Source: Eledone cirrhosa | Lineage: Eukaryota | Reading direction: 5' to 3' | DNA length: 64,000 bases | NCBI GenBank assembly: GCA_964016885.1 | Contig: OZ024741.1 | Span: 54,126,001-54,190,000, forward strand | Shown: piece after piece, positions 7,760 to 63,553 of the stretch | Numbering within the stretch: the stretch's first letter is position 1 | How the letters are laid out: every line of letters starts with the position of its first letter | Made by a program: the position numbers and the translations under genes | Notes under the pieces: model-generated | What the model was told of the DNA's origin: nothing | The model's input: only the letters and a program-made list of their open reading frames with translations | Database searches by the model: none

Positions 7760-7793
7760 GTGGTCTTTCCCATCTTTTCCACTCCTTTTCAAC

Positions 7794-10700
7794 ATGACCT
7801 CACTCAGAATAGGCAGCATAAATGCGCGTGGCTTGGGGTCGTCATGGAAGCAGGGCCACCTGCTCAACGACCTCAGGTCACTAAACATAGATGTAGTGGC
7901 CATCAGCGAGACCAGAATCTCCGAAGCACAGGCTTTCGCACCGATCTTCGGCGGCTACGATGTGTACGCATCTCCCAGCCGTCAGGGATCGGGGGAGGAG
8001 TTGCTGTGCTTTTTCGGAGAGGTTTGGATCTTGCCATACGGGCCATCTTCCTGGACCCAGAAGGTAAGTTGGTGGTGCTGGACGTGTCCAGCGGAGACGG
8101 GCAAGCTTTCAGGTTAGTGGCCGTCTATGCCCCGACAGGAGCAGGGCGGCCTGATTTCTTCCGGCGTCTGGAGACTTTTCTTGGAACGTCCCGCTCTTTA
8201 GTGTTAGTGGGCGACTGGAACGGGATCTTAGATGCACGCTGGGATTGTGTGGGATTAGTGGATAGGGAAGGAGGGTGCAAGAGTCTCACCAACCTGCTCA
8301 GACGTTTTGAACTGTCTGACAGGTACCGAATGGATTTCCCGAATGTACCAATGTGGACTTGGACAAATCGCATAGGGTCATCCAGATCATATCTAGATAG
8401 AGTATTTTGTAGGGAAATAGATAGGTCTAGCATAGGCTGTCCACAATTCAAGATAGTCAGCTACGCGGACCACAAATTCGTGATCTGTGTGCTTGACTTA
8501 GATAGGCTTCATAGACAAGGACCCGGCTACTGGAAGCTAAACGCGTCCTTACCAGCGCGCAAGGCCTACAGAGACCGGATTAGCGAACTAGTTAAGCGGG
8601 CGTTGACGGGGGCCATCGTCAACAACAAGTGGTGGTTTGTTCTGAAATGAGCAATTAGAATAGAGTCCATTAGGTTTAGTAAGACTTTAGCAATAGAGAA
8701 AAATAGAGCAGAGGGAGAATTAGTTAGAAAATTAGATGAGGCGCTTAGCAAAGGCATCGCGACCGACGTACTTGCGGCGAAATTGGCCCTTGACCAATTC
8801 TTCAATGCAAAGCACGAAGGCTGCGTTGTGAGAGCTAGGGTGCGTGCTCTCAGACACGAGGGGACGAAAGCCGTTCAATGGGCCCGAGTGGCGGAGGCGC
8901 GTCGTGGCAACAAAGCCACGATCCGGTCTTTGGTGGACCACGACGGGCGCATGCTACTCGATCCCGGGCAAATGTGTGAAGCTTTTCAGCGACACTTCGC
9001 TCAACTGTTCGGGGGCAGTGGCGGGCCGGATCGAGGGATGGACTTTAGTGTCTACCTCGACGGACTGCCGCGGCTTTCGGCCACTGAGGCGGAGTGTTGC
9101 GAAAAGCCGATAACAACCGCTGAAGTACGGGATGCAATGACTAGTTGCACAAGGGGTAAATCGCCTGGTTTGGATGGTCTGCCCTATGAACTTTACGTAC
9201 AAATGCCAAACTTGTTCGGAGGCCTCTTGGCGGACGTCTACTGCAACTGGCAACAGAACGGGAGAATTCCCAGCTCTGTGAGCCGAGGAGCGGTGGCGCT
9301 GCTGAGAAAGGATCCGAACAAGGGGGATAACATAGATAATTTTAGGCCCATAACTCTGCTAAACACAGAGTTCAAAATTTTGGCCAAGGTGCTAGCAAAG
9401 AGGTTGGCGCTTGTCGTTGGTGGTCTGGTGGGAGAGGCACAGACATGCGCCATTCCCGACAGATCCATCCACGACAACCTCCACCTCATGCGATACATCG
9501 TAGAGAGGGTAGCTAAGGAACCTGGCACGGGTGGGTCTTTGATCAATTTAGATCAGTCGAAAGCCTTCGATAGGGTCGACCATCGTTACCTAGCGGCAGT
9601 CCTGAGGGCGGCTGGCTTTGGGCCCGTCTTCAGAGGCTGGATCGCTGCCATGCACAGCGACATCTGCTCTGTAGTGAGAGTGAACGGTCACCTTTCGGAA
9701 CCGTTCAACATCATGCGCTCGGTCCGCCAAGGATGTCCCCTCTCGTCCCTATTGTACGTATTGACTCTCGAGCCATTACTGCACAAACTGGAGACGTTGA
9801 GGGGGGTCCCGCGCGAACTAGGATGCGGAAGATCCGTGTCAGCATATGCCGACGATGTCACCGTAGTGGTGTCGAACGCCAAACACATCGAGGCGATCGG
9901 CACTACACTAAGAGAATACGAAGCGGTGACAGGAGCAATGATCAACCAGAAAAAGTCAGTGGGCCTGCAGCTCGGCACCTGGAGAGGCAGGTCCATGCCG
10001 TCCAACAGCGTCGTCGGGCGCTGGACGGACGGACCGGTTAAATTGTTAGGGGTCTGGTTAGGTCCAGACCTCCAGACGGACAAAAACTGGGACGAGGTGA
10101 CGAGCAGGGTGGCTTCTCTCACCCAGAAATGGGCCGAGAGGAAGCTATCCCTGAAAGGTCGAGCGGAGGTGGCGAATGCGTACATCGCATCCGTCATCTA
10201 CTACCGCCTGACCGTCGTACCTTGTCCTAAGCCCCGCCTGACTGCGGTGGAGCGTTTGCTCTTTCGCTTCTTGTGGAAGGGACGCGCTCCGATGGTCAGG
10301 CGGTCCATCTGCTGTCAACACCCGCTACGTGGAGGGCTGGGCATGCCGTGGCTGATGATGTTCAGACACGCGCTCAGGCTACGACATCTCCACCTCTTCC
10401 TCGACGGTGATCAGGTGTGGTCGCCGTTTGCAAGACACGTTTTTCCCCAGCTCGTCTCCTTGACGGAGCTGCAGTCCTGGGTCAAGCGAAGACCGAGAGG
10501 GAGCGCTTGGAGACTGGAATGTCTTCAGGCGCTCACAGCCCTCGACCAATCGGGCAATGTGATCGGTGGAAACTCCACCTTGGCGTTCTATAGGGGATTA
10601 GTGGAGGGGAAGAGCGACGACGTACTTGGAGAAACTCTAGGCGTCGACGAAAATCAACTAGCCAATCTCTTCGGAAGGACTTTCGGGCCGGGGCCTATGG

Positions 10701-11212
10701 ACAACTTCCAGAAATCCCTGGCCTGGCAGTGATACCGAGGAGCTTTGCCAGTTCGGGATAAACTCTACAGGCATGGAGGTGCCGTCAGCCGGGCATGTCC
10801 GAGATGCGCGCAGGGCGACGAAACCGTCCTGCACGCACTCGTCCAGTGTCCGAGCATTGCTGACTTGTGGGTTTATGTCGAACACCTGCTGTCACGTGTA
10901 GGACGGATCCAGCTATCAGCTGAGTCCATCGTGAGGATTGCCCCGCCCCCTTCCTTTAGCCTGGAAGGGCAGGCAGTTTTTATCTGTCTGGTGGCCATGG
11001 CGAAAGAGATAGTATGGTGGACACGTTTGAAAGGGCTGAAGACGAGCACTTACCTCTTCGGTGATGCCCTGATTAACTTTTTCAAATTTCATTTGAAAAG
11101 GAAAATCAGGGTAGAGAGGGAAGTGCTCTCTTCCCAGCATTTTGTTGAAAGATGGGTGAGAGAAGCAAGTATGGCCCGAATGAATGGGCCTTCTCTGAGT
11201 ATGTGTCTGTAA
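7794..11212 (+). pseudogene. LINE ORF2 (APE endonuclease, RT, C-terminal Zn finger); frameshift near 7990, stops at 8648 and 10730
   Basis: SINARGL, VYAP, GDWN, ADHK, KAFDRV, QGCPLS, YADD, CPRC...H...C. Confidence 0.93.
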
Positions 11213-11461
11213 ATTAAAGGTGGAAAACTGGGAGAGGGCACTTGCCCTGGTGGTCAGGGCCACTGTGGTCTTTTAATGGGCTTTCTCCACAAATGTCCCT
11301 TGGAAGTCCCCTCCCTATTGGGGAATTTTTCTTTGTTATTTTATTTCAACCTCTGTTTTTTTACACGCAGAAATGCCCATTTGTACCGTCCTGTATTGTC
11401 CTGTACTGTCCTTAATGTCTACTTTATGTGAACCCTTGTGGTTAATAAAGAAAACAAAAAC

Positions 11462-11475
11462 ATTATTATTATTAC

Positions 11476-11521
<46 letters not shown>
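11462..11521. repeat. (ATT)n spacer between LINE copies A and B
   Basis: Visible directly. Confidence 0.98.
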
Positions 11522-11732
11522 GACGAAAGTGGATGTACGTTTTTTTGAAGCTCCGTGAGTAAGCAATTTTTTGAGGATTAATTGTGGAGAATTGTTTATT
11601 TTTTGTACCGCTGAAGCATTATAAGACATTCATTTGTATCCTGTGAAGGAATAACTCATAATATTTGGGCCTTTTGGCCCAAATATTTGAACTTTATTTT
11701 GGAAAAATAATAATTTTTTTTCTCAAAAAAAC

Positions 11733-13646
11733 ATGGCGGAGCCACGCCCCCTAGAGGCGGGTTTGCTGTCGTGCAACGGCGACTTGAGCGTTGAGAGGAG
11801 AGGTGGGGCGAGGAGCGCCACCAGCACGAGTGTGAGCAGCGACAGTGCCAGCACCAACGGGCCGAGCGGCGCGGAAGGTGGTAACAGCGACAACACCAAC
11901 ACCAACAAGCCGAACAGCGCAGAAGGTGGTAATAGCGAGAGCACCAACAAAACGAACAGCACAGAGAGTAATATTAGCGACAGCAGCAGCACCAACAAGG
12001 CCAACAGCACAGTGGGTAACCGCGACACAGGGGAGAACAACAACAGCAATAGCAGCAGCAACACCAACAAGAACAACAACAGTGACAACACCAACAAGAA
12101 CACCTTCGCTGCTGTGGCAGCGGCTAAAAGGAGACCATGCTACAGCATCGACTTAACCAACAGAGAGGAAAAGTTGGCCCAGGCCTGGAAAATCATAAAT
12201 CAAGAGCAGACCTGGGCAAACTTAACTGTCCCGGCAGAAGCCATTGAGGCAGTGGAAAAAAGAACGGTGCATTTCAGATGCATCTCAGTAGAGACAAAGA
12301 GGGCAGCGATAATCGCCCAAGCTGATATAGAAGCCGCACTGAAATACATCAGAGAGGACACAGACTTCATAGAGAGGGGCAGGCAATACGGCACAGTTTC
12401 GGTGCTGTTCAAGTCTGAAGCCCTCGCTGTGAAGCATTCAATGACCCCTTTCAAAACCAGCAAGGTCATAATGTACCCCTCCCACATGGGAAAACGAATA
12501 GCACGTGTGCGCATTCCCAGGATTCCACCAGGACTTGATATGTGGTGGCTCCTGGGTTGCGTAATCGTGGAAGGAACGGATACAGTCCCGGTAGAGGCAA
12601 CGAGAACTGCCAGGGACGACTGGTCCGGGGTTGATCTGGAGATACTGCTCCAAATCAGACCCGAAAACGTAAAAGCAATCCCGGACCACATCCGCCTCCA
12701 AAACGGGAGGGTGTTGCATATAATGACTGAGGGCAAAAGGCCGCATTGTTTCCTTTGTGGGGAAACGACACACTTGCGAGCCTTCTGCCCTCAACTGCCG
12801 AAAAGCGCAAGGGGTCGAAAGATTCCACTGCTGGCGACGCCGGGACAAGGACCACCAGCAACACCGTCAACAATGGAACCACCAAAATTGCACACCCAGG
12901 GGGGAAACGAGGAAAGCTCTCCCATTCCCCCTCCCCCCCAAAATACACACACGAACAAGAACATAAACACTCACTCAGACACAAACACGCTCACAGCCAC
13001 AGACCCCTCATCCTCCAGCAGTGAAGATGAGGGAAAACCAAAGTCCCCCAAAATACAAAAAACAAAACACAAAAAAAAAAAAAGAAATCCACAAAGCACA
13101 AACACCCCCACAAAAAAAAATACACACACCACCCACACAAACATTTTCCCCACAGCATCACCAACACAACCACCAAAATCCCCCAAACGCAAACAAGCTA
13201 AACAGACACAAGAACAAATAGACACACAAACATCAGAAACTACAGACACCCCACCCACAACAAACGCAGACACAATAGAAACAACACTAACAAAGCTATC
13301 ACCACCACAATCACACGAACAAATAAAACCCGAGCAACAAAACATTAAAAACTTCGTGCTTGCCAGAAGGGCCAACAAGGAATTGATGGCCCATGTAGCA
13401 CGAAGCACAAACATCGAAAAAGACGGGGAAACATTTGAAGCGAGCACATTTCGCGTACCAGATAATTTGCTTCTGATGCGAATGTCGCTCGCTTCATACA
13501 AAGAAATTCGAAAGAGCTTTCCTCGGGATGTGGGAACCCCGAACGTAAAACCCACGTCAAGACTATTAAAGGGGTTCCCAAAAGAAACCCCACAAACCAT
13601 GGAGGTCGAACCACCCGACCTTCACAAGACCCCGGAAGGTAAGTAA
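11733..13646 (+). CDS. LINE ORF1p nucleic-acid-binding protein (CCHC zinc knuckle)
   Basis: Uninterrupted 637 aa; CFLCGETTHLRAFC; low-complexity N and C regions. Confidence 0.9.
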   Translation: MAEPRPLEAGLLSCNGDLSVERRGGARSATSTSVSSDSASTNGPSGAEGGNSDNTNTNKPNSAEGGNSESTNKTNSTESNISDSSSTNKANSTVGNRDTGENNNSNSSSNTNKNNNSDNTNKNTFAAVAAAKRRPCYSIDLTNREEKLAQAWKIINQEQTWANLTVPAEAIEAVEKRTVHFRCISVETKRAAIIAQADIEAALKYIREDTDFIERGRQYGTVSVLFKSEALAVKHSMTPFKTSKVIMYPSHMGKRIARVRIPRIPPGLDMWWLLGCVIVEGTDTVPVEATRTARDDWSGVDLEILLQIRPENVKAIPDHIRLQNGRVLHIMTEGKRPHCFLCGETTHLRAFCPQLPKSARGRKIPLLATPGQGPPATPSTMEPPKLHTQGGNEESSPIPPPPQNTHTNKNINTHSDTNTLTATDPSSSSSEDEGKPKSPKIQKTKHKKKKRNPQSTNTPTKKNTHTTHTNIFPTASPTQPPKSPKRKQAKQTQEQIDTQTSETTDTPPTTNADTIETTLTKLSPPQSHEQIKPEQQNIKNFVLARRANKELMAHVARSTNIEKDGETFEASTFRVPDNLLLMRMSLASYKEIRKSFPRDVGTPNVKPTSRLLKGFPKETPQTMEVEPPDLHKTPEGK

Positions 13647-13675
13647 ACCTTTCCTCCACCATTCATCCTGCCAGC

Positions 13676-16600
13676 ATGGCCATAAGAGTAGGAAGTTTAA
13701 ATGTTCGTGGCCTGGGGTCGCCCTGGAAGCAAGGTCACTTGCTCAACGACCTCAGGTCACTAGGAATGGATGTAATTGCCATCAGCGAGACCAGAATTTC
13801 CGACACACGCGCACTGGCGCCGATTTTCGACGATTATCAGATCTTTGCATCTGTTAGTCGGCCGGGAATGGGAGGTGGAGTGGCTGTGCTGTTTAGGAAA
13901 TGTCTGGATCTCGAGGTAAGGTCAATCTTCCGGGATCCTGACGGAAAGTTGGTGGTCCTGGACGTGAGCAATAGCGAAGGTGGTGCCTTTAGACTGGTGG
14001 CCGTCTACGCCCCTACTGGGGCCGGTCGGCCGGACTTCTTTAGGCGCCTGGAAAACTTTCTGCTTACGTCTCGCCCTTTACTGTTAATAGGGGATTGGAA
14101 TGGCATCTTAGAAGCACGCTGGGATTGTGTGGGAGTATCTGATAGGAGCGGGGGGTGCAAAAGCCTCAAGTACCTGATCAGCCAGTTTCAACTGTCTGAC
14201 AGGTACCGACTAGATTTCCCTAATGCGCCAGTATGGACCTGGACCAATCGCATAGGGTCATCTAGATCGTACATAGATAGGATTTTCATTAGGAAAAGAG
14301 ATAGAAATAGTGTAGGATGTCCACATTTTAAAACGGTTGCCTATTCAGATCACAAGCTTGTGATCTGTATGGTCGACCTAGATAAGACACGTAGGTTAGG
14401 ACCCAGCTACTGGAAGCTAAACATGTCGTTTCCGGCACGTAAAGCTTACAGGGACCGGGTCAACAACTTAGTTAAGCAAAAGTTGACAGGGGGGGTTGTC
14501 AACAACAGGTGGTGGGGGGCACTCAAAAGAGAGATTAGAGCAACCTCGATAGGATTTAGCAAAGAAGTAGCAATAGAGAAAAATAGAAAGGAGGAGGGGC
14601 TGATAGCTAAGTTAGACGAGGCTATTTGTAGTGGCATTGCAACAGACGTGCTAGCGGCGAGAATGGCACTAGACCATTTCTTCAATGCGAAACACGAAGG
14701 TTGCATTGTCAGAGCTAAGGCGCGTGCTCTGAGGAACGAGGGAACCAAAGCTGCCCGATGGGCTCGCTTTGCAGAGACGCAGCGTGGAAATAAAACCACA
14801 ATTCGGTCTTTGACGGATCGAGATGGACACGAACTGAGCGATTCCAAGCAGATGTGTGAGGCCTTTCGCCAGCACTTTGCTCGATTGTTCGGGAGGATGG
14901 GTGAGTCGGAGACGGCGGCGGACTTCAGTCCCTACCTCGACGGCTTGCCACGCCTCTCGACGGCCGACGCTGAGCGCTGCGAAGAGCCGATAACATCAGC
15001 CGAAATTCAGGACGCCCTTGTCGGCTGCTCGAGTCGCAAGTCACCCGGTTTGGATGGTCTGCCCTACGAGCTTTACGTAAATATGCCAGACTTGTTCTCC
15101 GATCTCCTCGAAGCGCTCTACTGCAACTGGCAGCAGAACGGGAGCATTCCCAGTTCTGTGAGCCGTGGCGTAGTGACGCTGATAAGGAAAGACGAGAACA
15201 AGAGGGACACACTAGATAATTTCAGGCCCATAACCCTGCTCAACACAGAGTTTAAGATTTTGGCCAAGGTGTTAGCGAAAAGGTTGGCGCTTGTCGTCAA
15301 AGATTTGGTTGGGGAGGCGCAAACTTGCGCAATCCCGACCAGGTCCATACACGACAACCTCCACCTCATGCGATACATCATAGAGAGGGTTGGGTGCAAA
15401 CCTGGCTTCGGTGGGGCTCTGATCAATTTAGATCAATCGAAAGCATTCGATAGGGTCGACCATCGGTACTTGGAGGCTGTCCTCGAGGCGGCTGGCTTCG
15501 GCCCCGTCTTCAGAAGCTGGATCGCTGCAATGTACAGCGGCATCCGCTCGGTGGTCAAAGTTAATGGCCACCTCTCGGAACCGTTTCAGATCTCTCGATC
15601 GGTCCGTCAAGGGTGCCCTCTCTCCTCACTTCTGTACGTATTGACTCTTGAGCCTCTACTGCGGAAGCTGGAGTTGTTGCAGGGCATCCCGCTCGAACCG
15701 GGACGTAGAAAGGCTGCGTCCGCTTATGCGGACGACATCACCGTGATGGTGTCGGACACCTCGGAAATCGAGGTGATCCGCACCCATTTGGAGGAATATG
15801 AAAGGTTGACGGGAGCAAAACTTAACCCGGAAAAGTCGGTGGGCTTGCAGCTCGGCACCTGGAGAGGCAAGTCCATGCCGTCCAACAGCGTCGTTGGGCG
15901 CTGGACAGACGGACCGGTAAAGTTGCTCGGGGTTTGGTTCGGACCAGACCTCCAGGTGGATAAGAATTGGGACGAGGTGACGAGCAGGATAGCCAACCTC
16001 ACCCAGAAATGGGCTGAGAGAAAGCTATCACTGAAAGGGCGGGCGGAGGTGGCGAACGCGTACATCGCGTCCGTCATCTACTACCGCCTGACCGTCGTGC
16101 CTTGCCCCCGTCCACGCCTCGCCAATTTGGAACGGCTCCTTTTCAAATTTTTGTGGAGGGGACGGGTCCCGTTGGTGAGGCGGTCCATCTGCTGCCAGCA
16201 CCCTCTTCGTGGAGGGCTGGGCATGCCGTGGCTAATGATGCGCAGACATGCGCTGAGGCTGCGACATCTCCAGATATTTTGCCTAAACGGTGAACAGGTG
16301 TGGTCGCCGTTTGTTAGACGGGCCTTTCCGCAGCTCATCTCTTTGACTGAGCTGCAGTCCTGGGTCAAGAAGAGACCGAGACTGGGCGACTGGCATCTGG
16401 AATGTTGCCAGGCGCTCACTGCACTCTGCAAGGTGGGCAATGCGGTCAGTGGAACTTCCACTCAAGATTTCTATAGAGGATTAGTGGAGGGCAAGTGCGA
16501 TGACGTACTAGGAGAGGCTCTGGGCGTCAACGAAGTAGAACTGACCAGTATGTTCCGGAGGACTTTCGAGCCGGGGACGATGGATAACTTCCAGAAATCC

Positions 16601-17095
16601 CTCGCTTGGCAGTGCTACCGGGGGGCGCTGCCGGTTCGGGATAAACTCTACAGGCACGGAAGTGCTGTCAGACGAACCTGCCCGAGATGCGCGCAGAGCG
16701 ACGAAACCGTTCTGCACGCACTCGTCCAGTGTCCGTGCATTGCTGACTTGTGGGGTTATGTCGAACAGCTATTGTCGCGTGTAGAACGGATCCGGCTATC
16801 GTCCGAGTCCATAGTGAAGATTGACCCGCCGCCTTCTTTTGGTCAGGAAGGGCAGGCAATTTTCCTCTGCCTGGTGGCAGTAGCGAAAGAGGTTGCATGG
16901 TGGACCAGGTTGAAAGGACTGAAGACAGACACTTTTCTCTTCGGCCAATCCCTCATCAACTTCTTCAAGTTTCACTTGGAAAGGAAGGTGAGGGTGGAGA
17001 GAGAAGTGCTGCCCCCCAGTACATTTACTGAAAGGTGGGTGAATGTGGCGAGAATGGCCCGCGTGAGTGGGCCTACTCTGATCATGCGCCTGTAG
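13676..17095 (+). CDS. LINE ORF2p: APE endonuclease, reverse transcriptase and Zn finger (Tx1-like)
   Basis: Uninterrupted 1139 aa; SLNVRGL, GDWN, SDHK, YWKLN, SPGLDGLPYE, QGCPLS, YADD, CPRC..ETVLHALVQC. Confidence 0.96.
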   Translation: MAIRVGSLNVRGLGSPWKQGHLLNDLRSLGMDVIAISETRISDTRALAPIFDDYQIFASVSRPGMGGGVAVLFRKCLDLEVRSIFRDPDGKLVVLDVSNSEGGAFRLVAVYAPTGAGRPDFFRRLENFLLTSRPLLLIGDWNGILEARWDCVGVSDRSGGCKSLKYLISQFQLSDRYRLDFPNAPVWTWTNRIGSSRSYIDRIFIRKRDRNSVGCPHFKTVAYSDHKLVICMVDLDKTRRLGPSYWKLNMSFPARKAYRDRVNNLVKQKLTGGVVNNRWWGALKREIRATSIGFSKEVAIEKNRKEEGLIAKLDEAICSGIATDVLAARMALDHFFNAKHEGCIVRAKARALRNEGTKAARWARFAETQRGNKTTIRSLTDRDGHELSDSKQMCEAFRQHFARLFGRMGESETAADFSPYLDGLPRLSTADAERCEEPITSAEIQDALVGCSSRKSPGLDGLPYELYVNMPDLFSDLLEALYCNWQQNGSIPSSVSRGVVTLIRKDENKRDTLDNFRPITLLNTEFKILAKVLAKRLALVVKDLVGEAQTCAIPTRSIHDNLHLMRYIIERVGCKPGFGGALINLDQSKAFDRVDHRYLEAVLEAAGFGPVFRSWIAAMYSGIRSVVKVNGHLSEPFQISRSVRQGCPLSSLLYVLTLEPLLRKLELLQGIPLEPGRRKAASAYADDITVMVSDTSEIEVIRTHLEEYERLTGAKLNPEKSVGLQLGTWRGKSMPSNSVVGRWTDGPVKLLGVWFGPDLQVDKNWDEVTSRIANLTQKWAERKLSLKGRAEVANAYIASVIYYRLTVVPCPRPRLANLERLLFKFLWRGRVPLVRRSICCQHPLRGGLGMPWLMMRRHALRLRHLQIFCLNGEQVWSPFVRRAFPQLISLTELQSWVKKRPRLGDWHLECCQALTALCKVGNAVSGTSTQDFYRGLVEGKCDDVLGEALGVNEVELTSMFRRTFEPGTMDNFQKSLAWQCYRGALPVRDKLYRHGSAVRRTCPRCAQSDETVLHALVQCPCIADLWGYVEQLLSRVERIRLSSESIVKIDPPPSFGQEGQAIFLCLVAVAKEVAWWTRLKGLKTDTFLFGQSLINFFKFHLERKVRVEREVLPPSTFTERWVNVARMARVSGPTLIMRL

Positions 17096-21420: not shown

Positions 21421-21583
21421 AACAATATATTGAGAAACACACAGATACATGCGGACACACACATATACATGAATATATCCACATCCATCCTTGAGTTAAT
21501 GGTGCCATTAACTCAAGGATGGATGTGGATATATTCATGTATATGTGTGTGTCCGCATGTATCTGTGTGTTTCTCAATATATT

Positions 21584-21585
<2 letters not shown>
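21421..21585. repeat. Near-perfect palindrome, ~82-bp arms, next to (AT)n
   Basis: aacaatatattgag...ttaatgg tg ccattaa...ctcaatatattgtt. Confidence 0.93.
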
Positions 21586-21648
<63 letters not shown>

Positions 21649-26436: not shown

Positions 26437-26496
<60 letters not shown>

Positions 26497-26499
<3 letters not shown>

Positions 26500-26685
26500 A
26501 ACAAGTAAGACCCCGACGGCTGAGCTCAAGCCGTTTCGACGGCTAATTGTGTACAGAATTAGCCGTCGAAACGGCTTGAGCTCAGCCGTCGGGGTCTTAC
26601 TTGTTCCTATTACCCACTCTACTACCCTAAGTATTGAGTACTTTGGTGCGTTATGGTCCACCTGGTTCCTTACCACATTTCCTTC

Positions 26686-26688
<3 letters not shown>
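26497..26688 (+). mobile_element. Fold-back (AT)n-embedded element, family P copy 1
   Basis: ~55-bp-arm palindrome plus ~80-bp tail; GAAACGGC..GCCGTC hammerhead-like 3' half. Confidence 0.85.
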
Positions 26689-26728
<40 letters not shown>

Positions 26729-26811
26729 AAAAATTGAACAGGGACAGAACAGAGAGGCAGTACAATAAATGTTTATTAAATTCACGCTCAGGAGAGTGGG
26801 GTTAGGTGGGG

Positions 26812-26845
26812 GACGACGTTTCGGGCATAAGCCCTTCTTCAGGTG
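26812..26845 (-). ncRNA. Minimal hammerhead motif
   Basis: Minus strand: ac CTGAAGA a gggc ttat gccc GAAAC GTC gt. Confidence 0.72.
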
Positions 26846-27680
26846 AGAAGTGTGTGGGAACAGAGTTCAAAAGGTGTGTAGGGGAGTGGTGGAGAGACAT
26901 ATAGCGAAAGGAAACGGTGCGAATGAAAAATTAACAAATAAAGACAAAAAATATAATAAATAAAAATAAAGCATGATCAAAATACAAGGAATGAGAAAAT
27001 TTAAAAATAAAGGCATGATCAAAATAAACTGAAATTAAAAGGGGGGTAAACAGGTGGTGGAAGGGTGTGGGGTAGGTAGGGGTGGTGGCGGGTGGAGTGG
27101 GGAGAGGGAGACGGGGTGTCCGAGCGGGGAGGGCTGAAGGTGGTGTGTGTGGTTAGGTGTGCGTATGTGTGTGTGTGTGTGTATGTGAAAGTGAGGGTTG
27201 GGGGAAGAACGGGGTTGCATGTTCAGGAAGGTGTGTGTGGGGGTGTTTTTGTGGGTCGGAGTTTCTGTGCGTGTGTGGATAGGGGGTGGGGGGAGAGGAA
27301 TCAGGAGGCTGAGGGTGTAAATATGTGGTGGGAAGCACGTGTGTGTGGTTTAAGCGTTTTGTGGGTGGCGTGTGGATAAAAAAAAATGTTGGGGGGTGTG
27401 TGTGTGGGTGAGTTATATAGGTGATGGTGTAAGAGGATGGTTGAAAAGTTGTTAAGTTCCACGGATGTTAGGAGATTTGGTTAGAAGTCAATTTCGCGTG
27501 TGGGTAATCCAAGAAGCGGTGGTCGGAAGAGGAGAGATGTGGGGTGCGCGCGCAACAGGAAGTGGTCAGCAGTGGGAGTGCTGTGGTCAGTTGGTGCTGA
27601 GAGGTGGTCGGAAGAGCATAGCAGCAGTCGGCGGAATGGTAGGGAGGCGAGGATGGGTAGGTGTGAGAGTTGGAGTGAGG

Positions 27681-31152: not shown

Positions 31153-31188
31153 TCTTCTGATGAAGGACTAGTGTCCGAAACGTTAAGA
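31153..31188 (+). ncRNA. Minimal hammerhead motif
   Basis: tctt CTGATGA a ggac tagt gtcc GAAAC GTT aaga. Confidence 0.75.
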
Positions 31189-31444: not shown

Positions 31445-31480
<36 letters not shown>

Positions 31481-31545
31481 AGAGAGTAGAGTATTGAAGT
31501 TTGCTTAAAGCATTGTTGAATAATAAAAACAATTTTTTTGTCATT

Positions 31546-32002
31546 TTTGGAGGCCTCAACAATGCAGTAGGGTAAATCTCCGGGTAACAGAATCCAGTGG
31601 TGAAGAGAGAGATGTAAGGGAATGTAGAACGAGATGTAAAGTGTGTAGAGGAACGTAGGAAAGAGCGTAAAAAATAAAAATAATAACACGAGATAGAGTT
31701 ACCTTGGGAGAGATTTAATTGTCTCTATATTTCGGATTCGCATCCATCAACTGGGGGATTTTCCGGGGGGGGGGGGGATCTGTCGGAAAACCCCCCATTT
31801 GATGGATGCGAATCCGAAATATAGGGACAACTAAATCTCGCCCAAGGTAACTCAATCGCGTGTTATCATTTTTATTGTTTACGCTCTTTCCTACGTTCCT
31901 CTACACACTTTAATCTCATTCTACATTCCCTGACATCTCTCTCTTCACCACCGGATTCTGTTACCCGGAGATTTACCCATCTGCATTGTTGAGGCTTCCA
32001 AA
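31546..32002. repeat. Long imperfect palindrome (~220-bp arms) between (AT)n tracts
   Basis: Arms are reverse complementary around a G-run at ~31765-31783. Confidence 0.9.
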
Positions 32003-33444
32003 ACGATATATATATGTATGTAAATTTTGAGTATATGTTGATATATGTATATATGTATATATAGAGAGAGAGATAAATATACACGGGTGTATATGAGTGT
32101 GTATAGAAGATTATATTAATAAAAGTAATTCCAACTTTGTCTGATTTACTCGTTTTATTTACAATCCTTTAAAATTTATAATGGTATTAGAATGAAATAG
32201 TATGGTAGAATATTAAATGTTAAGTGTTAATTGAACAAGTACTGTCATGCTTTCGCAATCTTCAGGTTCATATTGTGTGGTGACAGTCAAGTTTGAAATT
32301 TTCAACTGTCATATATACATATATACCATAAAGGACTCATGGGATCGTCAGGTATGATATGTCTTTAATAGTTAGGTACAATCAGGTCTCATGCAATGAC
32401 AGTAACTCATTAGATGGAGAATTGGTTGATATGTGAGAGTCGTCGCAGCTCCTGATTAAGTTGCATAGTTATTCTGACTTTTTGTACATGAATTCCACCG
32501 ACGTCGACGTTAAGACTGCCTTTCAGCCTTTCGTGCTGAAGAAATTAAATACCAGTACAGGGCGTCGAACTGGTAAGTTTATTAATATTTGCGTTATTTG
32601 TTCTGAATTTGTTCTGAATTCTGAGTTCAATATACGGCTTCTACTATTGAATAAAATGGTAAAACGATATAACTGGGTGTGTGTGTCTATTACTACTACC
32701 TTGCACCCAATGGTTTGCAATATTTGATCCGGATCTGCATTCTGAGTTCAAATCTCGATTACTGCTAAAGAATAAAATAACAAAATGATAGAACAGTGCG
32801 TGTGTTTGTGTGTGTATATTTGTGTGTATGCATATCACTAAAACAGGCCCCTATGTGTTGTAACATCTGAGGCAAAATAAACCTATAAAATTGTGAACCG
32901 TAACAACAAGAATTTATGGAGAAAAAAAAAAGAAAAAACCTGGGGACCCTTCCTAACATTCGTTGTTATAGTGACACCGATGTCATTACTTCTAATGAAA
33001 TTCTTACCAAATACTTAAAGTTTCTGGAGGAGGGATTTAGTAATCAACGCAAAACATTCTACATTATCGTAATGGAGAAAAAAAATGATGGCTTTATATT
33101 TTAATGTTGCTAAACCACTTGATTACGGCTGTTGTCATGTGATGGCTTTATGGCTTGAATCATTAGTAACTTGCTGCGATTCAGTCTATATTTGCTCTCT
33201 ACACTCAGACAACATTTTTTTTCTGCTTATGCCAGGTTTCTCAACCTACATTTATGGTCTGCTAGCAAGTTTTATTTGTAGTTATTCAAGGATATTATTA
33301 TACAAGTCTTCAGCTTCTTTGATAAGCATTCAATTCTGACGTCAATATTTAACTAAGTTATCAGAATTTGCGTTTTCTTGATAATAATATAACAGGGCTA
33401 TACATACATACATACATACATACATACATACATACATACATACA

Positions 33445-34258: not shown

Positions 34259-35345
34259 TAGAATCAACTAAAAAAAATCAAGAAAATTAACTGGTCAATA
34301 GCTAGACTCTGGAGATTAATACAAATATAAATTAGCGAGAATCATATTTCGGCTATTGGAAATTAGCGAAAAACAACTTCCGAGATGTGTGGCAAGCGCT
34401 CAATAAATTCTAATGAACCAGAGCTACAACATACGTTAAAAGGCCAAACCCTCTGAGACGATGGTTAAACCATTATCCGCACAGCCATAGAAACGACCAA
34501 GTAATTCGGGTCAAACAAATTAAAAAAATGTAATTGAAAAGTTTACCCGGACCTCTGGATGGTTGGTAAAAATCCAGCATTTGGGTTTCTGCGACTCCTA
34601 AATCAAGTACTGTCCGCTTAGACAAATAATGTTAGGCTTCTGGTAATATTATTGAACAAGGATGTCACTTTCTCAACAGGCTTTTAGTTCAAGTGCCAGG
34701 CCAAGGATTGACCGTTACCAATACCCACGTGGGGCTCGACAAGGGAGGCAACCCTTATTTTTGGCGGATGAATTCAGTATGTGTATATTATTGCAAAATT
34801 GCAAAATATCACAAAACGAATTAAGTTCTCAACAGAATGGTTTTAAAGTTAACAAAAGCTATTCATCAGTCAATAGAATCAACTAAAAAATCAAGAAAAT
34901 TAACTGGTCAATAGCTAGACTCTGGAGATTAATACAAATATAAATTAGCGAGAATCGTATTTCGGCTTTGGAAATTAGCGAAAAGCAACTTCCGAGATGT
35001 GTGGCAAGCGCTCAATAATTCTAACTAACCAGAGCTACAACATACCTTAAAAGGCCAAACACACTGAGACGATGGTTAAACCATTATCCGCAAAGCCATA
35101 GAAACGACCAAGTAATTCGGGTCAAACAAATAATAAAATGTGATTGAAAAATTTACCCGGACCCCTGGATGGTTGGTAAAAATCCAGCAGTTGGGTTTCT
35201 GCGACTCCTAAATCAAGTACTGTCCGCTTAGACAAATAATGTTAGGCTTCTGGTAAGATGATTGAACAAGGAAGTCACTTTCTCAACAGGCTTTTAGTTC
35301 AAGTGCCAGGCCAAGGATTGGCCGTTACCAATACCCACGTGGGGC
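34259..35345. repeat. Partial tandem duplication, period ~614 bp
   Basis: tagaatcaactaaaaaa...cccacgtggggc occurs twice. Confidence 0.9.
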
Positions 35346-38211
35346 AGAGCACGTATTTTCGTTTCCCAGAGCACGTATTTTGCTTCTGACAACGCAGCCT
35401 TCATTCTTTGCGTCGAACAACTGGTCCAAGGCCGTTCTCGTCGCTAGCAGGCTGGCTACGTTGCCACTCCTAAGTGCCTTTTCTACTTTATCTACCAGTT
35501 CCTTTTCGGTTTTAGTTCTATCTAACACTAATTCTTTACTAAAAGCTATCGAGTCTAATCTAACTGCCCTCTTGAGAGAGTACCACCATCTGTTGTTGAC
35601 AATGGCCCCCGTCAAGTGCTGCTTAACTAAAGTGCTAATATGTCTATTGTAGGCTTTGCATGTCGGTAACGACAAGTTCAGCTTCCATTAGCCGGGTCCC
35701 AGTCTATGGGTTTTATCAAGGTTGACTACGCAGGTCACTAATTTGTGATCTGAATAGGCAACCATGAACATTTGTGAACAGCTTAACATGTTCCTATCCT
35801 TCTTTCTAACTAGAACCCTATCTAGGTACGATCTAGATGTTCTCCTACGATTAGTCCACGTCCACAGTGGCACAGTCGGAAAATATAGTCGATATCTATC
35901 GGCCAGGTCAAATCGGCCGATTAACTGTTTGAGGTTGTTACACCCCTCTCTATCGGGACATGCTCCCACATAGTCCCAACGTGCATCTAGGATTCCATTC
36001 CAGTCCCCCACTAACAGCAGGGAGCGGGACGTTCCCAGAAAAGTCTCTAGACGTTTGAAGAAGTCTGGCCGCGGTGTCCCGGATGGGGCATATGCGGCCA
36101 CCAGCCTGAAGGCTCCACCTTCACTACCGTCAACGTCTAGGACCACCAGTCGACCCTCCGAGTCCAGATGTACGAGGTCCAGGTGTTTCCGCAGCAAAAC
36201 GGCAACCCCACCCTCACCTCCCGGCTGACAGAGAGATCTGCGTAGATCTCAAAGTCGTCGAAGATGGGGGCCAGTTGTCGCTCACTGTGGATCCTGGACT
36301 CGCAAATGGCTACTACATCCATACTGTGCGACCTGAGGTCGTTTAAGAGTTTGTCCTATTTACAGGGCATCCCCAGGCCGCGTACATTCACACATCCAAC
36401 TCTTACATTGGCCATGTTGGTGCTGAAAAGTTAAAAAAAGAGGAAAAGAAATCACTCACCTCTTCGTCTCCTGGGGACCAGGCTGCATAATTTCCATGGA
36501 GGTGTTGGAGGGGTTGTTTGGTGTGGTGGTGGTCTCTGGAGGGGTGGGGACAGAGATGTTTTATGGGGAGGGGGTGTCTGATGGGATGGGGGTGGGTGTG
36601 GGGAAACATTTTAACAGGACTCGATTGTAGGGTTTGACGCAGGGGTTACCTACGTCGTTAGGAAATTTTTCTTTTAACTCTTTATGTGTGTCCATGGAGG
36701 TCCTAATCATTTTAAGATTAGGATTCTCCGAAGAGTGTGTAAAAGTTTTCCCTTCGGACTCCACCGAAGGGTTTTTATATATGGTGTCTGTTAAAGTTTT
36801 ATTGTTAGTATTTATGTAGGTGTAACTTTTTTGTTGTGTTGGGTTGCTTTTTGTCTGTGGTTCTTGTGTGTGTTTACGTTTTGTAGTAAGTGTTTTGTTT
36901 TCAGTAGGGGGTGTTTTTGTTTTTGTTTTGCTGTTTGCGTCGCTTGTGTTGGTGTTTGTGTGTTTGTTGCATTTTTGTTTGTGTTATGTCTTTTCTTTTT
37001 CTTTTTACTGGTCGGAAAGGCTCTCCCTCATTGTCACTAGGTGACGATGATGAGGTCTCATCCGTGTTGTTGGGGAGGGGTACATTTTGGGGAGTTGTTA
37101 TGTGTGTGGGTGTTTCTGGAGTTGTTTTAGGTGGAAAGGGGTTGGGTGGGACTGTGTTTGTCGTTTGTTTTGTTGTCACTATTTTTTTATGTTGTTGTTG
37201 TTGTTGTGGTGGTGGTGGTGGTGATTGTTGTGTTGGTGTTGCAGGTGTTGGCAGTAGTGCCTTTTTTAGGCTAGCAAGCTCTCAGGTGAACCCTGTTTAA
37301 GCAGTGGTAACATGAGGGCCGCCTACCATCGATCGAAATGTTTATGTATATAAGCCCATCCAGCAACACACGTTCCGGGATCCTAGCTATTCGTTCTGGT
37401 GTCATTTGGACCAGAACTTCCAGGCTAGTTCCGCTGAACAGGTCGCCGGAGGACTTACCTACCGATATTATATAGTGGCAGTATCGGTAGAGAGTTGGAC
37501 ACCATGCTTTGAAGCATAGAGTTACGTCCCTTTATGATCTGAGTTCAAATCCCGCCGAGGTTAACTTTACCTTTCATCCTTACGGGGTCGATAAAATAAA
37601 GTACCAGTAATGTACTGGTTGATTGCTGGCCTTGTGCCTAAAATAGAAACAATTATATAGTCTGTTTCGAGGTTTAAAAATCCACATAGTACCCACCAAA
37701 TATCAATATTTGGTGTGATACTTTGGATTTTTATTTTCTGTGTTCTTTTCCCCATGTATGTGGGGAAAAAGGCGAACAGCGGTGACACAATTGGCGACAC
37801 AGAATATTTCTGTTCCCTCAATTGGTCTTTCATTAGAATGGATAAACTCCCGTAGAGTCTACCCTTCTGAATAAAAGCAATGTCTTTTAAGGCATTTTTT
37901 AAAGCCAACTCAATTTCACCTTGTGAAAGTTGAGTCGGTTTTCGTGTTTTGTTTGAGATTGTCCTGAAAATCAAAGTTTTCAAGGCAGCTTCTCTTCGCA
38001 AATCTGGGGGAGAGTTTATGGAGAATAATCCGTTCACCCCAAAAGTTACATATTGTCTGGCGTTATTCATAAGCTTATTTGCATTTGAAATATCTACCGG
38101 TGTGTAGCTTACCGTTTTCTTTACGGTTTGCGCAAATGATATTTTGTCGTTTACTTCCTTGTTGCAGTTATTGGTCTTGTTGTTGTTATTATTGTTCTTG
38201 TTTATTATTAT
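35346..38211 (-). mobile_element. Decayed Tx1-like LINE copy C (ORF1 remnants and APE part of ORF2, ATG at 36415)
   Basis: MANVRVGCVNVRGLG, FRLVAAYAP, GDWNGILDARWD, SDHKLV; ORF1 KEKFPNDVGNP. Confidence 0.9.
37477..37651 (+). mobile_element. SINE family 1 inserted in ORF1 of copy C, 10-bp TSD attatatagt
   Basis: TSD at 37467-37476 and 37652-37661. Confidence 0.92.
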
Positions 38212-40537
38212 GGTCGCACATGTGAGAAGACAGTACAAATCTGCGGTGGAAAAGATTCGTAACTTTAAGCTGTTTTAAAGTGTAATTTTTTGTATTTTCT
38301 TGTCGTTAACGAAACGTAAGGTACACATCTTGATTTAAAGAGAGGGATACCTCTCAATATTCGGGCTATAAGCCCGAATATTCAGATTTATTTTTAAAGA
38401 CTTCGAAAAAAATCGCTTTCCCACCAAAAAAGATTATGGAAATGTTCGACCTTGAAACGGTAAACAACGTTCAGGTCAAAAGTTTAAAGGCAGCCACTGT
38501 AGATTTCACCACGCTACGACGGCTACAGTCATGCCTGTCATCCACTCTACTGAATGTGAAGGCAAAACTCAACCTCCTGTGATAGCAGCAGTATCATCTG
38601 AAAACGACATCACCACCACCGCCACCACCACCACAACAACAGCAACTCAGAGCAATAACGACAATAATACCGACAGCAAGAATGACAACACCAACAATAA
38701 GAGCATCAGAAGCACCACATTTGCTGCAGCAGCAGCAAAAACAAAGCGCTTATTGAATATTGATATTGATATTAGCGATAAAGACGAACAGTTGGCCAAA
38801 GCGTGGAGGCTAATTAAACGGGAGAAGTCCTGGGCAAACCTGACCATCCCGGACGAGGCAATAGCGGCCATGCAGAGGAGGACGGTGTTCTTTCGATGCA
38901 TTTCGGTGCAGACACGAAAAGTGGAACTTGCCAGCCAAGCAGAGGACGAGGCTGCTTTGGAGTACATCGGAAGTAACATAGAGTACAAAGCAAGAGGCAA
39001 ACAGTTCGGTACCATCTCGGTACTGGTCAAAACCGAGGCCCTCGCTATTAAGCACTCGGTGACCCCCTGAAGAACGGAACGCATTATCATGCATCCGTCC
39101 TACATGGGTAAAAGGACAGTAAAGGTACGCATTCCCAGCATCCCACCAGGAATGAACATATGGTGGCTGCTGGGATGCGTAATCGAGGAGGGGACAGACA
39201 CTATCCTCCTGGATATCAAAAGGACAGAGAGAGAGGACTGGTCCGGAATGGATTTGGAGATTATTCTCCAAATGAAACCGGAGGACATGAACAACATCCC
39301 GGATTTTTCTCGCCTGCAGGACGGGACAACAATCCAACTAATCATTGACGGAAGAAGGCCACGCTGCTTCGTCTGCGGGGAAGCAACGCATCTGCAAGCC
39401 TTCTGCCCTCAGCGCAAAAATGCAGGGGGTCGCAAACCTCCTTTGTTGCCAACGCCAGTGTCAGCACGGAGAGCTCCACCACCACCACCAACAAAATCAC
39501 GGACACCGACATAAAAAAACAGCCGGATCACCACCAACACCAAAACCAATCCAAGGGGAAAACGAGGAAAGCTCTCCCACTCCCCTACCCCCCAATTATA
39601 CACATAGATAAAACAATAAACGCACACACAGACACAGAGACACTCACAGCCACAGACCCTTTGTCTTCCAGCAGCGAAGATGAAGGAAAACCCAAAAGTG
39701 TAAAAAAACAGATAAAACTCACAATAAAAAGCCCCAACAAAACACAAAAACATACACAACAAAAAATACAGACACCACTAACGCAAACACTTCCCCAATA
39801 ACATCATCACCAACAGCAACATCGACACCACCTTCACCATCCCCGAAAGGCAAACAACCTAAACAAACACAAGTACAAATAAACACACAAATACCTGAAA
39901 TTGCAGACGCCACACCTACAACAAACACAGACATACCCGAAACAACACCACCAAAACCATCACCACCACAGTCACCAAAACGAAAACAAATAAAACCACA
40001 CCAACAAAATGTTAAAAACTTCGTGCTTGTCAGAAGGGCCAACGATAAACTGATGGCCCTCTTAGCACGAAGCGAGGACATTCAAACAGAGGGGGAGATT
40101 TTTGAAATGAGCATATTTTGCGTGCCAGAAGATTTGCTTCTGGTCCTAATGTCACTCAATTCCTTCAAAGAAATTCGAGAGAGCTTTCCTCAAGTCGTGG
40201 GAACCCCGAATATGAAACCCACATCAAGACTTTTAAAGGGGTTCCCAAAAGAAACCCCACCAACCATGGAGGTCGAACCACCCGACCTTCACAAGACCCG
40301 GGAGGTAAGTAAACCTTCCCTCTCTCTCTAAGCTTACCAATATGGCCATATTAAGAGTAGGAAGTTTAAATGTTCGCGGCCTGGGGTCACCCTAGAAGCA
40401 GGGTCGCCTGCTCAACGTCCTGAGGTCGAATTTCCGACACGCGCGCACTAGCCCCCAATTTCAACGACTATCAGATCTTCGTATCTGTTAGCAGGCCGGG
40501 AATGGGGGGTGGGGTGGCAGTGCTGTTTAGGATCTGG
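38212..40537 (+). mobile_element. Decayed Tx1-like LINE copy D (5'UTR, ORF1, start of ORF2), 3'-truncated
   Basis: ORF pieces 38531..39070, 39089..39514 and 40023..40331 resemble copy B ORF1; CFVCGEATHLQAFC. Confidence 0.9.
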
Positions 40538-40829: not shown

Positions 40830-40840
40830 CGTATATATAT

Positions 40841-41050
40841 AACGAAGAAAATGTGGTAAGGAACCAGATGGACCATAACGCAACAAAGTACTCAATACTT
40901 AGGGTAGTAGAGTGGGTGATAGGAACGAGTAGGACCCCGACGGCTGAGCTGAAGCCGTTTCGACGGCTAATTCTGGACTAAATAAATTTTTAGTCCAGAA
41001 TTAGCCGTCGAAACGGCTTCAGCTCAGCCGTCGGGGTCCCACTCGTTCCT
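40841..41050 (-). mobile_element. Family P fold-back element copy 3
   Basis: Homologous to copy 1, longer centre. Confidence 0.85.
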
Positions 41051-41067
41051 ATATATATATACATATA

Positions 41068-41817: not shown

Positions 41818-41864
<47 letters not shown>

Positions 41865-41896
41865 ATAAACGTGCTGTGTGGTTGCTAATGGGGTAC

Positions 41897-41964
41897 ATAT
41901 GAATAAAGTTAGTCCTTCATCAGTGATTCGAAGATCACTGATGAAGGACTAACTTTATTCATAT
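41897..41964. repeat. Palindrome containing CTGATGAAGGAC (hammerhead 5' half)
   Basis: atatgaataaagttagtccttcatcagtgat..atcactgatgaaggactaactttattcatat. Confidence 0.85.
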
Positions 41965-42263
41965 ATATATATATGTATATATATGCTAACAAGAATCGAC
42001 CTCAATACCTCTTTGAAAACTAGTCCTGTAGAAGCTCCTTCTATAAAATAAAAAAATTTTACTCTGCCTTGTATTGAGTACCTTACTTACTGTGGTTATC
42101 CCCGACTCAACCCGGGACCTACGTATCCAAGCACACCCTAGTGCCCTTATAACCATCCTCAAGAAAATATGCTAACAAGAATCGACCTCAATACCTCCTT
42201 GACTAGTCCTGTAGAAGCTCCTTCTATAAAATAAAATAAAAATATATATATATATATATATAT

Positions 42264-42303
<40 letters not shown>

Positions 42304-42466
42304 TAGAATTGGAGCTCTGAAATAGCAATATATATATGGATGTATATATAATGTATTTTGCAATACACTTTATGCTTAATTAAAAGCATTTTGAAGACCG
42401 TAAGCTATTGTTTTTTTAGAGTATTGACAAATTCACTTACTTTGATCTCAGCAAACAGGGGAGATA

Positions 42467-42511
42467 AGCCGACAAGGCCTTGTTTCGCTTTTGTTGAAGC
42501 TTATCAAGGCT
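42467..42511 (-). ncRNA. Hammerhead ribozyme, U3-A8 variant (second copy 42788-42832)
   Basis: agcc TTGATAA gctt caacaa aagc GAAA caaggcctt GTC ggct. Confidence 0.78.
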
Positions 42512-43046
42512 AACTACTCCCACCTGTCTACCGAGATCACTGATGTTATATTCTTATAGAATTCTAGTAAATAATCAGGAGCTGATTATGCAGAGCGGTT
42601 GATGGTCAGGCAGAAATTAAAATTTAGAATTGGAGCTCTGAAATAGCAATATATATATGGATGTATATATAATGTATTTTGCAATACACTTTATGCTTAA
42701 TTAAAAGCATTTTGAAGACCGTAAGCTATTGTTTTTTTAGAGTAGTGACAAATTCACTTACTTTGATCTCAGCAAACAGGGGAGATAAGCCGACAAGGCC
42801 TTGTTTCGCTTTTGTTGAAGCTTATCAAAGCTAACTACTCCCACCTGTCTACCGAGATCACTGATGTTATATTCTTATAGAATTCTAGTAAATAATCAGG
42901 AGCTGATTATGCAGAGCGGTTGTTGGTGAGGCAGAAATTAAAAATTAGAATTGGAGCTCTGAAATAGCATAATCAGCTCCTGATTATTTACTAGAATTCT
43001 ATAAGAATATAACATCAGTGATCTCGGTAGACAGGTGGGAGTAGTT

Positions 43047-43091
43047 AGCCTTGATAAGCTTCAACAAAAGCGAAACAAGGCCTTGTCGGCT
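43047..43091 (+). ncRNA. Hammerhead ribozyme, U3-A8 variant (inverted copy)
   Basis: Same motif on plus strand; stem I extendable by gggag/ctccc. Confidence 0.78.
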
Positions 43092-43206
43092 TATCTCCCC
43101 TGTTTGCTGAGATCAAAGTAAGTGAATTTGTCACTACTCTAAAAAACAATAGCTTACGGTCTTCAAAATGGTTTTAATTAAGCATAAAGTGTATTGCAAA
43201 ATACAT

Positions 43207-43360
<154 letters not shown>

Positions 43361-56534: not shown

Positions 56535-56623
56535 ATATATATTGACCGCTCTACTGCTCCAAGTATTGAGTACACTGGTGAGTAATGGTCTACTGGTTTT
56601 TACCGCTTCCATTCTGATATACC

Positions 56624-56684
<61 letters not shown>

Positions 56685-56688
56685 ATAT

Positions 56689-56882
56689 AGGAAAATCTAT
56701 GACCCCGACGGCAGAGCTCAAGCAGTTTTGACGGCTATTTCTGGACTGAGATAGCCGTCGAAACGGCTTGAGCTCTGCCGTCGGGGTCATACATTTTCCT
56801 ATTACCCACTCTACTACCCTAATTATTGGGTACGCTGGTGCGTTATGGTCCATCTGGTTCCTTACCACAACTCATTCGTTAT
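56689..56882 (+). mobile_element. Family P fold-back element copy 5
   Basis: Homologous to copy 1. Confidence 0.83.
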
Positions 56883-63218: not shown

Positions 63219-63406
63219 GTCTATTATCTCTCTATCTCTCTATCCATCTATCTTGACATATAATTAAGCATGCCTTCACTCAATGAAAGAACATCTACAA
63301 TAATAAACAGGAAGTAATTTCCACATTATCACCGGGTAACTTTATACCAATATCTTGTGCATATATGTACATGCTTATATATATATACACATATATATAT
63401 ATATAT

Positions 63407-63500
63407 AGGAACATTTTTTCCTATGACCCACTCTATTATCCTAAGTACTGAGTACTTTGGTGCGTTATGTTCCATCTGGTACCTTACCACACTTCCTTCG

Positions 63501-63502
<2 letters not shown>
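63407..63502 (+). mobile_element. Family P element with collapsed palindrome
   Basis: ataggaa..ttcctat followed by the same tail. Confidence 0.8.

Positions 63503-63553
<51 letters not shown>

Follow-up and report, generated by a model that had tools for sequence, protein, structure and literature searches.

EN+ Penelope-like elements are described as carrying inverted pLTRs and one-sided tails of 30–40 bp and as favoring (TA)n targets, and the origin of their tandem and inverted structures and of their microsatellite bias has been stated as an open task (PMC8557442). Junction palindromes in Penelope have been read as RNA self-priming on an antisense template (PMC3846280). A Penelope protein studied in vitro, predicted to be a dimer, cut and extended both target strands, started reverse transcription at two sites bounding the tail, and used uncleaved RNA, while the steps after priming were left unvalidated (PMC11167929). 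Metazoan non-LTR retrozymes have been proposed to depend on Penelope (PMC7761336; 10.64898/2026.07.22.740005). Outside this group, L1 twin priming, in which both sides of a break prime cDNA on the RNA, yields inversions (PMC2246262, Ostertag and Kazazian model), and in R2 the 3' end of the cDNA primes synthesis on the cDNA itself, which leaves antisense sequence at the 5' junction (PMC11371274). In the passages covered, PMC13282606 mentions neither palindromes nor ribozymes. In the literature searched, which had subscription papers and Repbase/Dfam outside its scope, we found no account of the repeat described below, family P, or of twin priming by Penelope.

Family P resembles EN+ Penelope-like elements as described in PMC8557442 and PMC3846280 in its head-to-head inversion, junction palindrome, tail at one end, microsatellite targets, and hammerhead motif (here its 3' half) upstream of the tail. 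It differs from them in its length of about 190 nt, the lack of an ORF, the tail of 78–80 nt, the very high copy number, and a fold centre within stem II, so that the CTGANGA half is absent. With PAc (Poseidon, Anolis) it shares two fixed ends bounding the tail, an AT-rich target, and a template apparently uncleaved at the ribozyme site; the PAc ORF starts at stem II, and such a start was not evident in P (PMC11167929). The accessible text of PMC11167929 offers no explanation of inverted copies, the word "inverted" denoting there one blocking nucleotide. Like metazoan non-LTR retrozymes, P is non-coding and has a type I hammerhead layout with a stable stem III; unlike them, its window copies are not tandem and contain no complete ribozyme, tandem units being found here in another family (J). 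Overall, P behaves like a Penelope-type insertion, and its clade assignment, made from non-coding copies, is putative.

The window, i.e., the whole 64-kb stretch of DNA analysed, is microsatellite-rich, animal-type and possibly cephalopod-like DNA with a GC content of 39%. A BLAST search of positions 26497–26688 against it yielded five full fold-backs (copies A–E), one collapsed copy at 63407 (F), and a diverged tail-only copy at 56540 (G), the last scoring 72 against 30 for the best of 300 shuffles. Family P consists of lopsided palindromes of about 190 bases embedded in AT microsatellites, and each full copy runs from (AT)n through a short arm, a centre, a long arm, and a tail of 78–80 nt to AT again. 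A head-to-head inverted, 5'-truncated arm was thus present in five of the seven window copies. Coordinates are collected in the table.

Coordinates of family P copies and of other fold-backs and coding remnants in the 64-kb window
Feature	Coordinates	Strand	Basis
Copy A, complete fold-back with tail; 2-nt centre between the two arms at 26552-26553	26495..26690	+	sequence comparison
Copy A, short arm, end TTCCTAT adjoining (AT)n	26495..26551	-	
Copy A, hammerhead 3' half (GAAAC, 6-bp stem III, GTC site)	26568..26590	+	
Copy A, tail, on one side only, terminal TAT adjoining (AT)n	26611..26690	+	
(AT)n target, left of copy A	26441..26497	.	
Copy B, fold-back, ATTT/CTCTGCC subfamily, 2-nt loop	28857..29058	-	
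Copy C, fold-back, longest centre, switch at CTAAA/TTTAG stem	40839..41052	-	
Copy D, fold-back, 5-nt loop	44897..45099	-	
Copy E, fold-back, ATTT/CTCTGCC subfamily	56687..56882	+	
Copy F, tail plus outer stubs of both arms, palindrome absent	63405..63504	+	
Copy G, diverged, tail only, from short-arm end point to tail end, in (AT)n	56540..56622	+	
Family J fold-back within (AT)n, one inverted arm and a direct pair of 321-nt units	42297-43208		
Family K fold-back, CTGATGA...GAAA core complete in both arms, tail about 95 nt	45440-45862		
Family I fold-back, CTGATGA without GAAA half (reverse of family P)	41861-41965		
Family S fold-back	about 47996-48217		
Family O fold-back	about 31480-32003		
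Family R fold-back	54036-54186		
Family N, arm end by microsatellite, tail limit indistinct	21421-21586		
Presumed Penelope-type RT-EN remnant, two low-complexity in-frame inserts, ending in (AT)n	54309-56476	+	
Second presumed Penelope-type remnant, thumb plus endonuclease part	61151-62008	+	

The outer ends of the copies were constant and their interiors were not. In all five fold-backs the short arm ended in TTCCTAT (TTCATAT in the copy at 28859) beside (AT)n, and this end coincided with the first TAT after the GAAAC of each long arm (+41); the later TATs within the tail (+65 and +85) were not used as a short-arm end in any of the five. The tail itself ended in TAT, 80 nt beyond the short-arm end point, and was found on the long arm only, so that the two ends of a copy are not inverted copies of each other; beside the tail end of copy E there was only a short AT run. 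The centres, measured between the GACGGC/GCCGTC ends, were 30, 32, 48, 37, and 30 nt long in copies A to E, and all five differed, even between the near-identical copies C and D. What is left in copy F is TAGGAA, some 10 nt of arm, and the tail. Target-site duplications were unreadable within (AT)n. No tandem P copies and no ORF attached to a P copy were found in the window, and open frames running through arm and tail were dismissed as having no start. Pattern scans for family P in metagenome contigs, viral contigs, and genome contigs gave 0 matches.

An earlier sequence-only reading had counted six copies; its five fold-backs stand, its sixth (63407) has neither a palindrome nor a hammerhead half, and it missed the copy at 56540. 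It had also noticed that the centres differ and that the short arm stops at one point next to (AT)n, as the five copies bear out, and had warned that the footprint could be mistaken for a MITE. A MITE or another DNA transposon with inverted repeats would account for a short, non-coding, high-copy repeat with TA-rich targets and a long inverted repeat, yet we consider this origin highly improbable, because one end is an unpaired 80-nt tail. The lack of a uniform interior, with five different centres and many joints in reads, also speaks against it, as do the tail-only forms, the unfolded forms, and the hammerhead half.

To compare arms, differences were counted as events over 51–53 nt. The two arms of copies A to E differed by 0, 4, 1, 2, and 3 events, on average 2.0, whereas 40 pairs of arms taken from different copies averaged 6.1. 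Among the 120 possible ways of matching long arms to short ones, the true one gave the closest fit. For some arms the nearest arm was not their own partner, copies C and D being close to a single haplotype; the within-copy pairing spans four or five haplotypes. The tails differed between copies at 4–13 of 76 positions, and two subfamilies, A/C/D and B/E, could be distinguished. Since arms were closest within copies, diverse source sequences appear each to have been mirrored, with the arms then ageing apart; the pairing alone fits a folded source as well as an unfolded one. The arm variants quoted in the earlier reading were present and mirrored in both arms of the five copies, and its view of P as a Penelope-type retro-footprint whose two arms derive from one source sequence agrees with this pairing. 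Its statement that arms match within and differ between copies holds in the same sense, whereas "copy-specific" would be too strong a term for the variants: at 40932, plus-mate reads of one RAD run (X16, below) carried G>A in 2015/6828 and G>T in 1987/6828, matching copies A and E, and these variants are common genome-wide alleles. The variant of copy C was rare in reads, the alternative base being found in 6458/6674.

The long arm carries C-GAAAC, a stem III of 5–6 bp, and a GTC site. When tested on copy D, the combination of C-GAAAC, a stem of at least 5 bp, and GTC occurred in 3 of 5000 dinucleotide shuffles, so the hammerhead 3' half with its GUC site, as originally proposed, is beyond chance. 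Stem III of copy C was present in both the minimum-energy and the centroid fold, although long arm and tail as a whole folded no better than shuffles (z −0.08); the complete copy C had a folding energy of −140.8 kcal/mol (z −19.8), which none of 200 shuffles equalled. Of the parts of a type I hammerhead, P has GAAA, stem III, and an NUH site. The CTGANGA half, already described as missing, gave 0 matches upstream of the hammerhead half among the window copies. Rfam returned no hammerhead among the 150 of 175 matches listed for the window and none among 55 matches for the arms of copy C. The window copies of P contain the 3' half of a hammerhead, and self-cleavage in this family is putative. 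The arm hairpins of copy C also scored against Rfam miRNA models, all under the gathering scores, which is a warning for annotation.

To follow the family beyond the window, four of 18 listed runs, none of the 18 recorded as RNA, were aligned to copy C at 80% likeness: two sets of contigs (X1 and X4) and two sets of RAD reads (X16 and X17). X1, X16, and X17 carry the label of one organism (A) and X4 that of another (B); X1 need not represent the species of the window, because only 0.33 of the query words were found in it. Family P accounted for 16,994 contig pieces in X1 and 41 in X4, and for 24,646/12,467,656 and 25,208/12,785,554 of the reads in X16 and X17 (about 0.2%), and its copy number is very high. 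The junctions described here come from 15 of 98 joints, 40 of 244 variants, and 21 of 663 loose ends. Behind the short-arm end (41061), (TA)n loose ends were found in 4132 and 3823 reads.

Behind 40983, 34 X1 contigs (agreement 0.64) and one X4 contig (89 nt loose) continued in an unfolded form, the form that the earlier reading had sought. This continuation contains a loop, TTTTTAG, and later AAATAGCC; the last two are the complements of CTAAA and GGCTATTT in the arm and would flank an unpaired stretch. By eye, continuation and arm would form an imperfect stem II, judged over the 30 letters that were read, which end before the closing pairs of stem II and the expected CTGANGA core. The X4 continuation is not the mirror arm, because its 89 nt match nothing in the reference. 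Copy C has a run of five T and some loop letters in common with the unfolded form; its turn into the mirror sequence falls at the apical stem CTAAA/TTTAG, which is 5 bp long. A second continuation, behind 40969, was found in 946 and 968 reads (agreement 0.73 and 0.67); it could form a short hairpin with the arm, no clean core was found in it, and it is possibly another unfolded subfamily.

A loop-less palindrome centred on AATT, with 6 nt absent at 40983, was found in six X1 contigs (depth 5222 of 332,396), one X4 contig, and one X16 read. Molecules of the RAD libraries accumulate at AATT, so these libraries were probably made with an AATT-cutting enzyme; the peaks at 40972 and 40999 fall on this motif and were put down to restriction cuts rather than to biology. 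Molecules ended at 40983 in 463/669 and 516/720 cases and at 40989 in 246/586 and 316/650, the latter as expected if tail-less arms reach AATT, with the counts at AATT blurred by reads fitting either arm (2298 and 2236). Given such an enzyme, the two sets of ends indicate that arms of either kind frequently extend as far as this AATT. The minus-mate depth at 40985, the cut site of a centre of the copy C type, was 56 and 37, and such centres look rarer than those centred on AATT.

Among the 15 listed joints, several of which may be single or repeated loci, nine led from the tail side (40863–40925) to the inner end of the short arm (40992–41002), three of them converted from opposite-strand rows by mirror arithmetic; in these nine the long arm is mostly or wholly absent. 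Two further joints were of the collapsed type of copy F (40924>41041 and 40938>41041), and four were central and could not be oriented. The summed depth in X1 fell from 3.2–3.8 million over most of the tail to 2.0–2.5 million across the tail/arm boundary, with a similar drop in X4; as far as contig depth, a rough measure, allows, this is consistent with many tail-only copies like G.

We propose, at about even confidence, that family P represents the 3' ends of a hammerhead-bearing, Penelope-type RNA from which two cDNAs were joined head to head near stem II. What we infer in this model is which enzyme acts, how it primes, that an RNA is the intermediate, and in what order the steps follow; the anatomy, the arm pairing, the unfolded form with its stem-II partner, and the junction classes are what was observed. 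A Penelope RT-endonuclease would cut both strands of (AT)n, and the two target ends would prime at different places, one at the end of the tail and one at TTCCTAT, which lies 80 nt further in; both starts begin with ATA, in agreement with the target. By analogy with the in vitro system, the tail end would be the first RT start site and the short-arm end the second. Both cDNAs would pass the uncleaved GUC site, enter stem II, and stop there. Their 3' ends could then anneal at the self-complementary AATT or at the 5-bp apical stem, each cDNA templating the other, or could be joined end to end. Annealing at AATT would give the loop-less form and annealing at the apical stem copy C, an early stop of the tail-primed cDNA would give a tail with an inverted arm or a tail alone, and small deletions in the centre may come afterwards. 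In comparison with L1 twin priming (PMC2246262), the second site in P would be fixed and the two cDNAs would overlap, which produces a palindrome, whereas the two L1 cDNAs copy different regions.

This model is preferred because it covers all junction classes at once: the fixed short-arm end, the loop-less palindromes, the tail-to-short-arm joints, and the tail-only copy G. The one-sided tail and inversion typical of Penelope, the in vitro priming on both strands, the build shared with unrelated families, and the presumed Penelope-type remnants of the window also favor it. Against it, neither a parent ORF nor the CTGANGA half was found in what was read, P is not significantly similar to the window's Penelope remnant or to the other hammerhead families, Rfam gave no hammerhead for the arms of copy C, the tail of P is twice as long as the published 30–40 bp, and microhomology is lacking where the arms of copies B, D, and E meet. 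The short-centre and one-armed forms could also be later deletions from a perfect palindrome.

The mechanism first suggested for P was a snap-back, in which a single tail-primed cDNA crosses stem II, folds at the apical stem, copies itself, and joins (AT)n at the first TAT. Part of this proposal has held, in that the fold lies inside stem II and copy C, with its switch at the 5-bp CTAAA/TTTAG stem and its retained loop letters, is as expected; the position of the short-arm end, at the first TAT that follows GAAAC, and the 3-nt microhomology at the join of family J point the same way, and snap-back has been described among R2 insertions (PMC11371274). Twin priming accounts for copy C and family J equally well. 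Snap-back offers no direct route to loop-less palindromes without later deletion, to centres where the short arm extends deeper than the long one (B, D, and E), or to the joints of tail with short arm that make up nine of the 15 listed, and it leaves the fixed short-arm end unexplained, since the later TATs of the tail went unused in all five copies. The apparent rarity of copy-C-type centres (depth 56 and 37, against 246 and 316 ends at 40989) is also unfavorable. In engineered R2 insertions snap-back is a minor class, as described in PMC11371274, whereas the fold-back is the main form of P (5/7) and has fixed outer ends. We therefore regard snap-back as quite unlikely to be the main route. 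In our view it is probable that most insertions rebuild the palindrome from a single arm, whether by twin priming or by snap-back.

The uniform build at such a copy number suits a self-propagating master. One or more palindromic, non-autonomous masters may have been transcribed as whole fold-backs with (AT)n flanks and retroposed in trans by a Penelope enzyme, the fold-back having arisen a few times, the arms being re-matched by snap-back or conversion, and the centres eroding later. The centres of A, B, D, and E are derivable from the loop-less form by deletions of 5–12 nt, F-type copies resemble hairpin skips, and deletion could mimic both the loop-less and the tail-plus-short-arm classes. 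However, all five centres differ, even between the near-identical C and D; copy C would need loop letters of the unfolded form; and many subfamily alleles are mirrored in both arms. We consider such masters an unlikely, though by no means negligible, explanation. Twin priming, snap-back, and a palindromic master can coexist.

The window offers a further comparison, since self-BLAST of the masked sequence gave 19 rows of local inverted repeats. In families J, K, I, S, O, and R, one arm ends at or near a microsatellite and the other is prolonged by a tail to (AT)n. With at least six unrelated families sharing one build, the build appears to be general here and the centre family-specific; this repetition argues against a palindromic master and for a machinery that makes the build repeatedly. 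P showed no significant shared sequence with these other fold-back and hammerhead families in a shuffle test. Family J is joined through 3 nt of microhomology on a tandem, non-palindromic template, and Rfam gave an HH9-like match (22.2 bits, E 0.0022, below the gathering score of 52), i.e., a degenerate hammerhead. The hammerhead core of family K lies about 55 nt from its fold centre, and Rfam returned no hammerhead among 7 matches for this family. The tie between fold and stem II that had been suggested thus holds in P, but some other families of the window fold well upstream of their own hammerheads.

Several smaller observations concern these families. Family J is retrozyme-like, and another copy of it begins at 63783. 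An element beside copy A (26727–26860, minus strand) has a complete hammerhead core at 26842 with no clear helix I, and a tail-only copy of it lies at 52535–52614. A compact hammerhead core, CTGATGA-stem-GAAAC, occurs once in the window (31157–31185, plus strand), and further GAAAC-stem-GTH half motifs with a palindromic stem III were found at 25985 (−), 21087 (−), and 21896 (+). A tail motif common to P, family Q (26727), and a remnant at 54 kb was rejected, 283 and 251 of 300 shuffles being as good.

Returning to the model with two RT start sites, a broader proposal is that Penelope insertion is two-ended by design, both strands being primed and the cDNAs meeting in the ribozyme stem II. We put this forward tentatively, as something that may well not hold. 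If it does, the hammerhead would be a stop-and-anneal structure rather than a cleaver, and many AT-embedded palindromes here would form one class of retro-footprint, whose junctions show the mechanism directly. Inverted pLTRs, tails, and junction palindromes are already known features of Penelope, and the junction classes of P make the mechanism countable: with thousands of short, fully readable junctions, twin priming, snap-back, and master models are separable by counting. Family P therefore likely provides a large natural record of Penelope-type insertion. For repeat annotators, a palindrome that is embedded in AT and tailed on one side is likely a retro-product that could be filed as a MITE, and the unpaired 80-nt tail and variable centre of P are in line with the earlier view that its footprint is not that of a MITE.

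The window also contains coding remnants. ORF remnants at 54309–56005 and 61151–61960 matched proteins of 700 residues (E to 2.5e-49) that carry an RT motif (YRDD) and C-terminal CNC..CP..G.C and YIG motifs, and by these motifs we take the remnants and their homologs to be Penelope-type RT-EN. Pfam searches of the window ORFs and three homologs gave no RT or GIY-YIG match, and a PDB search gave 0 matches. Stretches of (AT)n lie between both remnants and the P copies, and in a shuffle test P showed no significant likeness to the 3' end of the Penelope remnant in the window. The in-frame inserts of the first remnant recall the N-rich inserts described in PMC3846280. A hammerhead-like motif lies near 56385–56417 in the same remnant.

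Other retroelements were present as well. By their motifs, 5776–17095 and 35266–40331 are presumably two tandem LINEs of an L1/Tx1-like kind, with ORF1 and an endonuclease-RT ORF2. We take 46025–47437 (+) to be a decayed RTE-like reverse transcriptase and 57682–58101 (+) a Helitron-helicase-like fragment. The LINE frame at 13643–17095 is open for 1150 aa and possibly intact, and decayed relatives lie on the minus strand.
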